Source: Podarcis liolepis
Lineage: Eukaryota
Assembly: GCA_965112155.1 (NCBI GenBank)
Contig: OZ218101.1
Strand: one strand, 5' to 3'
DNA: 64,000 nt
The notes below the pieces were generated by a model. That model was not told the origin of the DNA, did not search any database, and was given only the letters and a program-made list of their open reading frames with translations. Both the position numbers and the translations under genes were made by a program. Below, one piece after another: positions 15,968-50,737 of the stretch. How positions within the stretch are numbered: position 1 is the first letter of the stretch; each line of letters opens with the position of its first letter.

Positions 15968-16618
15968 CTTCACAACCAAAGATTGAATGCTGTGTATATT
16001 TATCCTGTTGTTTTAAAAATGTGAGATCAAGGGTCATGGATGTGTCTTCCATACTCTACACCTCCTTTCCTATCCATAATTGGTAGGGACAGAATATTTT
16101 TTGCAAAATGCTATGTTTTTGGCAGTGCTTGCACAGTTTAACTGATGGGCAATTATACCTATTGTTTTGCATACAGATCTCTACAGCTATTAGTATCTAA
16201 AGATTTTTCTAATAAGTTGAGGTAGCAATTTATGATTTAAAGAAGAAAGGGATATTTCCCAAGGGCAGTTTAGGCTACACCAAACAAATCATATGATGGA
16301 AGAAAACCAAGTTTGTTCCAAAGTCAGTATGTGCCTGTGAATTTCATTTTCAGAAAGGCTGCACCCATTGCACATACATATGTGTAAAACATCAGAGAGC
16401 AAATTGGGTGCATAAATCATCAAATTAAGGTTGAAATAGTTTTACCGACTTGCCAGTGAAATATTCTTTGACACAAAAGAAATAGTCATGTCTTTCAAAT
16501 ACGAACTTTAAAGTCTTGCCTACATATTGAGAATACGGATGTTTAAAAAGCAAATCGTTATATTTAAAAAGAAAGAAAGTGCATGAATATGCCCTACATC
16601 CAGACTTTGGTTGTGAAG
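15968..16618. repeat. Unclassified ~650-bp element with ~55-bp imperfect terminal inverted repeats, copy 1 (CDK8 intron 10)
   Basis: cttcacaaccaaag at 15968 is inverted at 16618; second copy at 47331-48386. Confidence 0.75.
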
Positions 16619-17018
16619 TTGGAAGGCTGTCCCCATCTTCACCATAGTCCACCCATCAAGTTTTCAAATAAATATAAACTAATTATAGAATGTCATCTAT
16701 AATTTCAAGTGGACCTGCAGGCAGTTAGCAGTTGACTATGAAGATCTATAGCATGCATAATCAACCTGTCAGTGAATAACAGGATTATTGCTATGACTAA
16801 TGGGATCAAAGGCTCAGGACAAGATTAATAGGAATATTACTTCAAAATGGCAAATGGCACAGTAAAGCCATTTCTTATAACTTATCAAGAAGGAGCATCT
16901 CACTTGTTATTTTCAGAACATTCCTCCATTCCACACCCACCAAGTCATGCTGTGACACTGAAAGCAATAAAGCATTTAAAGAGCTGCACAGATAGTATCT
17001 AGTAAACTGACCACTTAC

Positions 17019-17116
17019 TCAGATGTAGGAAGTGGATCTTCTAAGAAATAAGGATCCTGCATAGCCTGTTCTGAGGTAATTCTCTTTATTGGGTCCATAG
17101 TAAGCAATTTCTGTAG
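17019..17116 (-). CDS. CDK8: CDK8 coding exon 10
   Basis: [33 protein letters not shown]; tag|...|gtaagt; 98 nt. Confidence 0.98.
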
Positions 17117-17727
17117 CTATGCATAGTTAAAAACACAAGACATTCAGTGCTGTCAAATCAATCAAGAAAATATTTCACCACAATGTGAATATACAAAGCT
17201 TCCTTATATGCTTATAAAGTCTAGTTAGCTCAGTGGCAGAGCTTATACTCTGCGTACAGAAGGTACTAGGTTCAATCTCCAGAATCTCCAGGCACGGCCG
17301 GGAGAGACCCCCATCTGAAAACTTGAAGAGCTGCTGACAGAATATTGAGCTAGATGGACCAATGATATGATTCAGTATAACCTGGTTCCTAATAATCTAG
17401 GCTTCCATAATCTGAGAATTAGGCTTATATGATCTATAAAATGCTACCCATGGAAAAGCTGCAGTTACAAGACTTACTTGCTCACATAAATGGGCCACAG
17501 AGCATATCACACCTATAATGCAGTAGGTTTAATTTCTACTGTGCTGTACAAACAATTCAAGGTTGTTAATGTTAGAGGCCCATCACACTATATAAGTACA
17601 ACCTCTCACTGTGCTTTCCAATATACTTAGCATTCTTCCCAAGTAGTCTGGTAGTGAACCTAGCCCATGTGATAAAAGCACATGGTGAAATGGTTTTGGA
17701 TTGCTGGGTTTAAGGCTGTGGGGGGTA

Positions 17728-17979
17728 AAAGAAGAAGAAGAGTTTGGATTTGACATCCCGCCTTTCACTCCCTTTAAGGAGTCTCAAAGTGGCTAACATT
17801 CTCCTTTCCCTTCCTCCCCCACAACAAACACTCTGTGAGGTGAGTGAGGCTGAGAGACTTCACAGAAGTGTGACTGGCCCAAGGTCACCCAGCAGCTGCA
17901 TGTAGAGGAGCAGAGACGCGAACCTGGTTCCCCAGATTACGAGACTATCGCTCTTAACCACTACACCACACTGGCTCTC
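17728..17979 (-). mobile_element. Squam3-like tRNA/CORE-type SINE
   Basis: Minus strand starts GAGAGCCAGTGTGGTGTAGTGGTTAAGAG (A box), has B box GGTTCGCGTC, a MIR/CORE-like GGTGACCTTGGGCCAGTCAC and a (CTT)n tail. Confidence 0.8.
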
Positions 17980-47244: not shown

Positions 47245-47694
47245 TAATATTGAACTGAACTTAAAAATTTTTTATTCACATAGAAACCAATACCAGGTAG
47301 CACACAGTATTGAGGTGTAATTTATACATTAATCACAACAGAAGATTGTTTCAAAGCATTTTGCTGATCATTGTGAGTTTCAAGGAGATGCTGAACCCCT
47401 GAAAGACCTCAACTTAGATTGGTAGGGATCACTAAAACTGCCTCCTTTCCACTTCTGCTGACTGATGCCTTCCATTAATTTCCACCAATGGACAGTCACC
47501 ATTGGATGACACTGTTGACCTTTAAAGGGTAAGCTGTCTGAGCAGCAACAGGTTTGCCCTCAAGAACTGTAAATACTTTAGTGTCAGTTTTTATCAAGAT
47601 TTACATCATTAGAGTAATTTGCACAAACGTGTAATATAGAATAGCAAGTTATTTTATGTATGGTGGCATATACAAAGGCATAATTGCCTTTCAC

Positions 47695-47809
47695 AGAATC
47701 ACATAACTGTTGAGCCGAAAGGAACCCTAAGGGTCAACTAGTCCAGCCCCCTGCAATGCAGGAATCTCAACTAAATCATACATGACAGATAGCCACCTAG
47801 AGAATCACA
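47695..47809 (-). mobile_element. Short CR1-type 3' end insertion
   Basis: cacagaatcacataactgttgag...ggtcaactagtccagcccc; agaatcaca repeated at both ends. Confidence 0.6.
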
Positions 47810-48093
47810 GATGGGGGGAGGAGGAAACCAAGTTCGTTCCAAAGTCAATATGCTCCTGTGAATGTCATTTACAGAAATGCTCTACACATTGCATATACTC
47901 ATGTGTAAATAATCAGAAAGCAAGTTGGGTTTATAAATAATCAAATTAAGGTTTAAATAGTTCTGCTGGCTTCCCAGGGAAAGATTCTTTGACACAAAAG
48001 AAACAGTCATGTCTTTCAAATACTAATTTTAAAGTCTTACCTACATACTTGCAATAGGGAGGTTTAATAGGCAAGCCTCAAAATTTTCTAATA

Positions 48094-48326
48094 CAGTCAT
48101 ACCTTGGATTGAAGTAGCTTCGGGGTGAACATTTTTGGGTTGCACTCCGCAGCGACCCAGAAGTAACGGTGCACGTTACTTCCGGGTTTCACCGCTCGCG
48201 CATGAGATCAAAATGAATCACGCGCAGAAGCGGCGAATCACGACCCATGCACGCACGGGTTGAGTTCACTTCAGGATGCAAACGGGGCTCCGGAATGGAT
48301 CTCGTTCGCATCCAGAGGTACCACTG
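48094..48326. mobile_element. Tc1/mariner-type MITE family B
   Basis: Same ends and core as the 27585 copy; inserted into the older unclassified TIR element. Confidence 0.85.
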
Positions 48327-50737
48327 CAATGTATTTTTAAAATAAAGTGGATGAACATGCACTACATCCAGACTTTGGTTGTGAAGTTCTTAAATATCTA
48401 CCTACTTCAAAGCCACCAAAATGGCTTCAGGTCCAATTTGGGAAGCATGGTATCAGCATGTGGAACCTTAAAATACCCCTTTCCACATGCAGCTACATGC
48501 ATCCTTATGCATAGTGAGAGACCACCACACATGAAAACCTCCCCAGATTCCAACATGCTACAGTCATGTGCAAATTGCATTTACCCTGGAAATACTAAGG
48601 TATCACTTGTTACTATAGAAAGCTCATTAAAGTGCAACACTCATAACCATTATAAGAGAAATGAAGCTGGAGCTGCAGAATAAATCTGTTGTTAAAGATT
48701 CCACAATTCATAAACGTTTAGAATATAAAATGCCCAGAAGTAATAAGAAATGCAGACTACTGGTTCTTATGGCTATAAAAATGCTAGGCTAGGTAATGCA
48801 ACTTAGATTACAATTAATAAGTTATCTCTTGTTAACTGTGGGAAGCAAACTCCAATTCAATTTCTTTCCCCCACAGCTCTACTAAGAAAAAGGTAAAAGA
48901 TGTATTTCAAAAGGAAAAATAAGCAAACCCTCTATGATGATTGGTATGTATCCTTCACAAAAGCAGTCAGCAAGGAAGTACAAAATGGTGACAAGCTATT
49001 AAGTAATGAAAATCAAATACAGGTTGGCAAAAAAACCAGAAACCGGGTGGGTCTGTAGAGCAATAAGTAGAGCAATTTATTTAACTGAGAGAGCTCTGTT
49101 TCAAAAGATTACACAAGAGGATTTCTACAGCTGGATGCATGCTGGCTGTCACTTATTGTATCTAATATAATAGGATGTTTTGTAAGGTATAAGATGAGAA
49201 CTGCTAAAAAAACCCCACTAGTAATAAAACCACAGTTACTAAGACGGCCAGGTATAAACTCAAGAATGTGCTAATCATGGAATGAGAGACAAGAGGCATT
49301 GTTTAGGAGAAAGCCACAGACATAACTCCACAAAGATAAGCAGGAAGAGACAGATTATGTTCTAAGATTATTTAAGGATCAGTTACCCCTTGCCACATTT
49401 TAGAATTCACCTAGTATGATTATTAGAATATCAGTGCCTCATGCCTTCCCACATGCAAACTTGCATGTGGGAAAGCAATTCTAAAGTGGTGGGAGGGGAA
49501 GAGAAGACAAAAAGCCTCTAGGACTAGGTGATAACTATTTCTTAAGTGATTAAACTGAGGTAGAAATGCTGGGACCAATCACACTGAAAAATAGATAAAT
49601 AAATGGAGTATGAGGGATAAAGAAGCAATTAGTAATGCAACATGAGGTGGCAGACAAAAAGATAGGGAAGGAAGAAGGGATTAAGGAGGCAAAAAGAAGA
49701 GTAAGATAATTAGAAAAGAAATGGGAAGTACAGTAATACAAAACACATGGTGTATGCACAGAGATGCAGCAGGAGTTGCCAGGGGGTAGGGGTGAAGGTG
49801 GGACTTTCTTACAAGTAAAAACTAGAGCTCAATGGCAGAGCCTGTGCCTTTCCTGCAGTTGCACTCAGGTCCGTGGCACCTTCAGTTTTAAAAAGCATCA
49901 GCTGATGGGAAACACATTTCTCTGCCAGAGAGCCTGGAGAGATGTCGGCAGTCAGAGCTAACAATACATATGAAATAGTCTAATACGGCATAAAGCAGCT
50001 TCCTATATTTCCTAGGACCTAGACAGAAAAAGCAGTCTTGTGACACCCTAGTGATGGTGGGGCACTACAGTTCCCACCATCCCAGACCATTGGAAAGGTT
50101 CACAACATCTAGAGGGCCAAACATGTGCCCTTACTCTACCTTACAAGCTAATAGAGTCGCTGTGGCATGAGCTTCAGTCCAAAAAAATCCGCATATGAAC
50201 CTGTTAGCCCTTAGGGCGTCGTAAGGCTCTTTAAACACACGGACACGCTTCCGTGAACAGACTTTTAGGGAACTGCCCAAGTGGGATCTCTTCCTCACAA
50301 AAGCCAAGGCGGCGCCGGGGAGAGGGAAGAGTTTCACGCAGCCCCCCATCCACCCGGAGCGCGCTCTCAGCAAAGGCAGACAGCGTGGCAGACGGGAAAG
50401 CCCTCAGGGGCGGCTCCGAGGAGGAGGAAAAAGACCGCGGAGGGGGGTGGGGGAGAGAAAAGAAAGGGAAGAAAGGCATTTGAGGGAAACGGAAAGCAGG
50501 GACCGGGGCGGGGAAAGGGAAAAATAAGAGACACCCCCCACCTTCGTGGGCTGAGGCGACCATCATGGCAAACTGCCCACCCGCCCGGAGTCCACCCCGA
50601 GCTAAATGGGCTGCACCGTTTGACGCTCCTTTGCAGCGGCATTCCCGGGTTTCCCTTTCGCGTTACGGTCACTGCACCACTGAATTTGGGCTCTGTCTCT
50701 GTGTGCGTATATGCGAGCCGCTCGCCCGTCCACTCAC

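Follow-up and report, generated by a model that had tools for sequence, protein, structure and literature searches.

Duplicated conserved non-coding elements (CNEs) and shadow enhancers are paralogous constrained blocks with few insertions or deletions (indels) around one gene, and intron-encoded C/D and composite small Cajal body-specific RNAs (scaRNAs) include examples duplicated within one host gene, as small nucleolar RNAs are. A constrained non-coding element duplicated inside one gene amounts to a natural experiment, in which the bases kept by both diverged copies mark function. We describe here a candidate of this kind in CDK8, the gene of the Mediator kinase, the regulation of which is, to our knowledge, little described. 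The element lies in a 64,000-nucleotide (nt) window, meaning the whole stretch of DNA analysed, from contig OZ218101.1 of the Podarcis liolepis assembly GCA_965112155.1 (a 1.57-Gb genome). It is a unit of about 320 bp, present in two copies and confined to this gene, and its signs of constraint are modest. At a rough probability of 40%, we read it from sequence comparison as a locally duplicated, constrained cis-regulatory element acting at the DNA level, with a putative enhancer role.

Two further systems were considered for comparison. In Kojima (2018, PMC5753468), the UCON and Eulor repeats are old, low-copy and conserved, and most are unclassified. Human circCDK8 depends on inverted MIR short interspersed nuclear elements (SINEs) no more than 3 kb from the circularised exons, according to Yoshimoto et al. 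(2020, PMC7371899). No published description of the CDK8-intron unit was found in the literature searched.

A two-copy unit in CDK8 introns 10 and 1

The window contains the entire CDK8 gene on the minus strand, with 13 exons located via translated motifs. The features needed first are listed below (strand is given where one was assigned).

16301 to 16620: copy 1 of the ~320-bp unit, in CDK8 intron 10
16301 to 16553: gap-free block of copy 1
16576 to 16620: 45-nt terminus of copy 1, differing from that of copy 2 at 3 sites
47822 to 48074: gap-free block of copy 2, in CDK8 intron 1
48344 to 48388: 45-nt terminus of copy 2
17019 to 17116, minus strand: CDK8 exon 10, phase-2 donor
50738 to 50865, minus strand: coding part of CDK8 exon 1, phase-2 donor

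Copy 1 lies 397 nt downstream of the exon 10 donor and copy 2 approximately 2350 nt downstream of the exon 1 donor, in the same orientation and 31 kb apart; both introns are phase 2. When the window was compared with itself by BLAST, 16301-16553 aligned with 47822-48074 at 83.8% identity over 253 nt with 0 gaps, and 16572-16620 with 48340-48388 at 91.8%. An earlier note on this DNA had counted 41 mismatches in a gapless 250-nt alignment, which was exact on recount and which BLAST extended; its 3 differences in the terminus were borne out by comparison, and its placement of the copies agreed with the mapped exons. The 41 mismatches over the first 250 nt of the block comprised 20 transitions and 21 transversions. 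Once a miniature inverted-repeat transposable element (MITE) was excised from copy 2, the copies aligned across about 320 nt; the 2 gaps of this alignment fall within an AT-rich linker. The securely shared part is this unit of about 320 bp and not 650 bp. The earlier note had proposed a ~650-bp element with terminal inverted repeats (TIRs) occurring twice; the duplication is real and copy 1 has an inverted repeat, but copy 2 has no TIR. A weak palindrome inside the block at 16440-16522, which the consensus fold shows as a pair of small hairpins, was not significant alone (E 0.25).

A DNA search of the genome with the unit returned 2 candidates, the two CDK8 copies, and the left half of copy 1, searched likewise, matched only its own locus, while a control MITE query of the same genome gave 5213 candidates. 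Two 25-nt patterns with 2 mismatches allowed had 2 hits each. Two 23-nt patterns with 3 mismatches had 4 and 7 extra hits compared to 2 and 18 control hits, and no flanking homology was found for the 11 extra hits (2-3 mismatches) once the seed was masked. By profile scan, no copy was present at the CDK19 locus in 140 kb spanning ten mapped exons. Metagenome scans gave 0 hits and, in a second scan, 5 chance hits alike only around the seed; viral contigs gave 0 hits for the unit. The genome searches mostly miss copies below ~75% identity, so a small, very diverged family is possible; within the divergence that these searches reach, the unit has two copies and is no dispersed family. Low copy number, to which the earlier note had looked for support, is what was found genome-wide, and the numerous copies that it had named as grounds for refutation did not turn up.

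Two inverted arms belong to the unit or its surroundings.

15968 to 16013: distal inverted arm of copy 1, 33/46 nt matching the terminus
16318 to 16325: inner inverted arm of 8 bp that closes the unit by pairing with 16603-16610 (pair probability 0.92-0.99)

The inversion of the terminus at the left end of copy 1 was present as claimed, its outer 14 bp perfect and 33/46 nt identical overall. A profile extended this arm weakly to about 16087, and its duplex energy was better than that of 300/300 random controls. The ends of copy 2 paired no better than random (155/300 controls equally good), and a TIR element is not supported for copy 2. The inner arm is identical in copy 2 (47839-47846 with 48371-48378) and has the same pair probability in both copies. 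Across the 46-nt arm, the distal arm has 10 differences private to it, and the two termini have 2 and 1; such a pattern would be expected if the termini are constrained, but equally if the repeat was imperfect from the start.

No target-site duplication (TSD) was found flanking copy 1 or copy 2, although age could have erased one. Kolobok elements are defined by a TTAA TSD and 5'-RR...YY-3' termini (PMC9587614). TTAA was absent from both ends of copy 1, TTAA words near the ends of copy 2 were not symmetric to the inverted arm, and RR...YY termini fit at one end of copy 2 only. A Kolobok/T2-MITE assignment, hinted at in the earlier note, was rejected because neither copy is surrounded by a TTAA duplication, copy 1 has no TTAA at its ends, and there is no dispersed family. 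The transposon origin suggested in that note is no more than a possibility: no family was recovered, a TSD is missing, and copy 1 alone has a TIR. An old fold-back element may have left the inverted arms behind, or the arms may have favored the local copying.

Constraint weighed against neutral decay

Indel controls consisted of 412 repeat alignments of at least 200 nt from the window and fetched loci. Of these, 33 had 11-20% non-CpG divergence, and among them only the block was gap-free (Poisson P 0.01-0.02); the other 32 had 1.0-8.9 gaps per 253 nt, with a longest ungapped run of 215. Three multi-copy repeat families that served as neutral controls have two or three copies each in the window, at 9760-10099/31147-31486, at 10117-10332/40538-40759/47036-47246, and at 27585-27840/43519-43778/48094-48326.

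Polymorphism was assessed by comparing reads with copy 1. Run X10 differed from the window at 13/713 nt (1.8%) in the left flank, 15200-15913, and 37/37 sampled 31-mers of 16296-16626 were present in it (Fisher P 0.013 compared to the flank). We infer zero differences in the block for X10, because the block is hidden in the read alignment. Run X10 carries the same species label, and its distance of 1.8% from the window points to deep lineages.

The earlier note's suggestion of purifying selection on the right half gains modest backing from two independent lines, the deficit of indels and that of polymorphism, both post hoc; a segregating hAT insertion, described below, speaks against it. Together the two deficits are modest indications that the unit may be under purifying selection. 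Several points weigh against this conclusion. The entire unit has 2 gaps in 320 nt (Poisson P 0.14), the edges of the block were picked after the fact, and the indel control pairs, drawn from few families, are not independent of one another. Run X10 was selected for having every word, in addition to the hidden block. The transition share of the block, 17/35 non-CpG changes, is like that of neutral repeats. Finally, both copies have received insertions.

48094 to 48326: MITE of a multi-copy family, inserted at a TA site within the copy 2 linker, with ends CAGT...ACTG
47703 to 47809: retroelement tail with AGAATCACA duplication, adjoining the block on the left
16592 to 16599: 8-bp target site of a heterozygous hAT-type insertion in run X18; the insertion is absent from the window

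From their terminal features, we take the MITE to be a putative mariner relative and the retroelement tail, which bears a 9-nt duplication, to be putatively from CR1. Both lie outside the block, as had been claimed, and in copy 2 the block is parted from its terminus by the MITE. Between the MITE and 11 relatives there are 4-16 non-CpG changes (~6%), compared to 35/243 non-CpG differences (14%) between the two blocks, and the MITE is therefore younger than the split of the copies. The earlier note had taken the insertions as a sign that copy 2 is old; at these divergences the MITE does not make the block look surprisingly young. In run X18, a heterozygous insertion with an 8-bp duplication sits within the identical, best-conserved terminus of copy 1. 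It is considered hAT-type because of this duplication and because its ends match those of an element with an 8-bp TSD at locus L050; the label is a probable one, resting on terminal features. The element with these ends and TSD occupies L050:2532-3533. The hAT-type family was probably recently active.

The left halves, 5' of the block in the numbering used here, were compared separately.

16014 to 16300: left half of copy 1, single-copy sequence with borderline homology to the left half of copy 2
47333 to 47428: three short landmarks matching the left end of copy 1
47434 to 47475: fragment of an unrelated, old, low-copy dispersed repeat inside the left half of copy 2

The three collinear landmarks reported in the earlier note are present, but homology of the left halves is only borderline (P 0.003-0.14). 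In a hand-picked 150-nt segment, 10, 74, 82 and 410/4000 background pieces were as good under four scoring schemes; in a fair test of the whole halves, 84 and 210/1500 background pieces were as good; and with the retroelement tail removed, 14, 26 and 45/2000 GC-matched pieces were as good. These data tilt slightly toward remote homology of the left halves. The left half as an older tandem copy of the right half was also tried and dropped, not being significant (24-202/600 controls equally good). The dispersed repeat at 47434-47475 has five loci in all (the window and L043-L046) with a conserved core of ~45 nt and is unclassified.

The first rival is a neutral history, which we place not far behind the cis-regulatory reading: an old fold-back or MITE-like sequence would have been copied once locally, with both copies decaying functionless and the left halves either unrelated or scrambled by insertions. 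The inverted arms suit such a history, as do the insertions in copy 2, the segregating hAT insertion in copy 1 and the ordinary transition share. The MITE being younger than the split of the copies, the order of events also fits neutrality, and by calculation chance alone would give an identical run of 27 nt between sequences 84% alike. The deficits of indels and polymorphism do not fit, however, nor do the missing dispersed family and TSD, and the left halves, which in most tests exceed background by a little, have diverged much further than the block.

By a narrow margin we favor the cis-regulatory reading, in which one local duplication likely gave the two copies in introns 1 and 10, purifying selection likely retains the unit as a DNA-level cis-regulatory element, and the copies would be a redundant, putatively enhancer-type pair. 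Action on DNA is suggested by exclusion, because there was no coding, guide-RNA or sense-strand structure signal, as set out below. Conservation of the pair across reptiles or amniotes would make it either a redundant pair of enhancers, open to testing, or a splicing switch acting over a long range; without such conservation, the duplication is a local one of no special note.

Coding, RNA and gene-conversion alternatives

A protein-coding role of the unit is unlikely on the sequence tests made. The 41 mismatches fall 13/15/13 over the three frame positions (hand count), so that the block mismatches have no codon periodicity, and the reading frames of the unit are either broken in one copy or carry mostly replacement changes. 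Pfam gave no match for 8 frames of the unit. Protein searches with the frames found none, and another search gave 2 weak hits without real alignment. Among CDK8/19 proteins (120 of 928 CDK8-like proteins covered), 0/20 with the exon-10 end and 0/35 with the exon-1 end run into the unit.

The second rival, that the unit acts as RNA, is improbable in our estimation. It would be either an intron-encoded RNA of about 300 nt with a terminal stem, or a pair of pre-mRNA arms that compete and loop out exons 2-10. The shared host gene and orientation are compatible with this, as is the phase 2 of both introns. The 8-bp closing stem of both copies has beside it a C-like UGGAUGU and a D-like CUGA, the latter changed to UUGA in copy 2; canonical C/D RNAs have a C box RUGAUGA, a D box CUGA and a closing stem. 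However, Rfam, run on the whole window and in E-value mode, gave nothing on the unit. No antisense guide of at least 10 nt was common to the copies against the ribosomal DNA, U1, U2, U4, U5 and U6 of the genome; the best shared run against these targets was 9 nt, G-U pairs included. No shared hairpin was seen in a search for H/ACA boxes by eye. A 7SK-like start, GGAUGU, was dropped for want of Rfam support.

Folding was no more favorable to an RNA. The block folded no better than shuffles (z -1.6 to +0.2). Whole copy 1 reached z -3.07, apparently from the stem of the inverted arms, because the halves alone were unremarkable. The consensus fold of the two copies was weak (ratio of consensus to single energy ~0.5) and no better on the CDK8 strand, where 5/60 shuffles were as good, than on the opposite strand (0/60). 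The structured intronic RNA that the earlier note had offered as one function therefore failed on Rfam, block fold and consensus alike. Reads were not used as evidence: 12% of bulk run X24 gave one pair on the block and 6% of single-cell run X22 none, with no joints or pile-ups, at too low a depth and from libraries that were not small-RNA. No RNA run was among those found to contain the sampled words of the unit.

A splice-site-like motif also occurs in each copy (the slash marks the putative junction).

16512 to 16522, minus strand: putative 5' splice-site-like motif TAG/GCAAGA, copy 1
48033 to 48043, minus strand: putative 5' splice-site-like motif TAG/GTAAGA, copy 2

The GC and GT variants make 8 and 9 of 11 pairs with the U1 of the genome, compared to 9 and 10 for two real donors, and 2/7 such motifs in 39 kb fall within the copies, as was noticed post hoc; both observations lean toward a role in RNA. 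So does the pairing of the intron 1 terminus with the distal arm of intron 10 (-46 kcal/mol; local terminus -50), since both duplexes beat 300/300 controls, and so does the requirement of human circCDK8 for flanking inverted MIRs (PMC7371899). The cross-intron pairing is automatic from the duplication, however, and is equally strong on the other strand (-50). Likewise, 0/20 of the CDK8/19 proteins with the exon-10 end contain a peptide from the unit.

A specific version of the RNA explanation would be a switch, in which the terminal arms of introns 1 and 10 compete for the single complementary arm of intron 10. Pairing over 31 kb would loop out exons 2-10, and the local hairpin would keep normal splicing. 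Were it true, the expected outcome would be a circle of exons 2-10, its length preserving the frame, or an exon 1-11 product that is in frame but has no kinase. We hold this switch to be very unlikely, because the pairing follows from the duplication and is matched on the other strand.

Gene conversion that kept the right halves alike once insertions had broken the homology of the left halves, with no selection needed, would account for the sharp edge of similarity beside the retroelement insertion and for left halves that are probably older homologues, but it merits little credence, given that at 14% non-CpG divergence it has long since ceased and neutral indels would be expected from the time thereafter, that the within-species deficit is unexplained by it, and that the tract is short.

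Apart from the unit, GC-rich stretches were observed at and upstream of CDK8 exon 1, at 50001-52000 (0.60) and 54001-56000 (0.52), and a 74-nt tandem duplication lies at 51534-51722. An Rfam tRNA-like match at 8567-8638 on the minus strand (30.8 bits, barely above threshold) is probably a SINE head.

Comparison with known systems

The resemblance to Kolobok/T2-MITEs comes down to one of the four ends of the copies, which has TTAA and two purines on the minus strand; the unit differs from them in being without a TTAA duplication and without a dispersed family. As with human circCDK8, complementary intronic repeats in CDK8 are able to pair across exons. The lizard repeats, in contrast, belong to a single-gene element with copies 31 kb apart, and no back-splice was seen among the few reads.

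The C/D RNAs and scaRNAs share with the unit a length of ~300 nt, an intronic position compatible with the sense strand, a terminal stem, and C-like and D-like boxes. The unit departs from them in its non-canonical C box, in the altered D box and MITE of copy 2, and in having no guide target and no Rfam match.

Like UCON and Eulor, the CDK8 unit is an old, low-copy, hard-to-classify non-coding repeat that is possibly transposon-derived and exapted. Compared by description only, those are dispersed families that vertebrate groups have in common, whereas the unit has two copies in one gene. Classic duplicated CNEs stand at paralogous genes that arose by genome duplication, whereas the CDK8 pair lies within one gene and none was found at CDK19; what the pair has in common with duplicated CNEs and shadow enhancers is that it consists of paralogous non-coding blocks, with few indels, at one gene.

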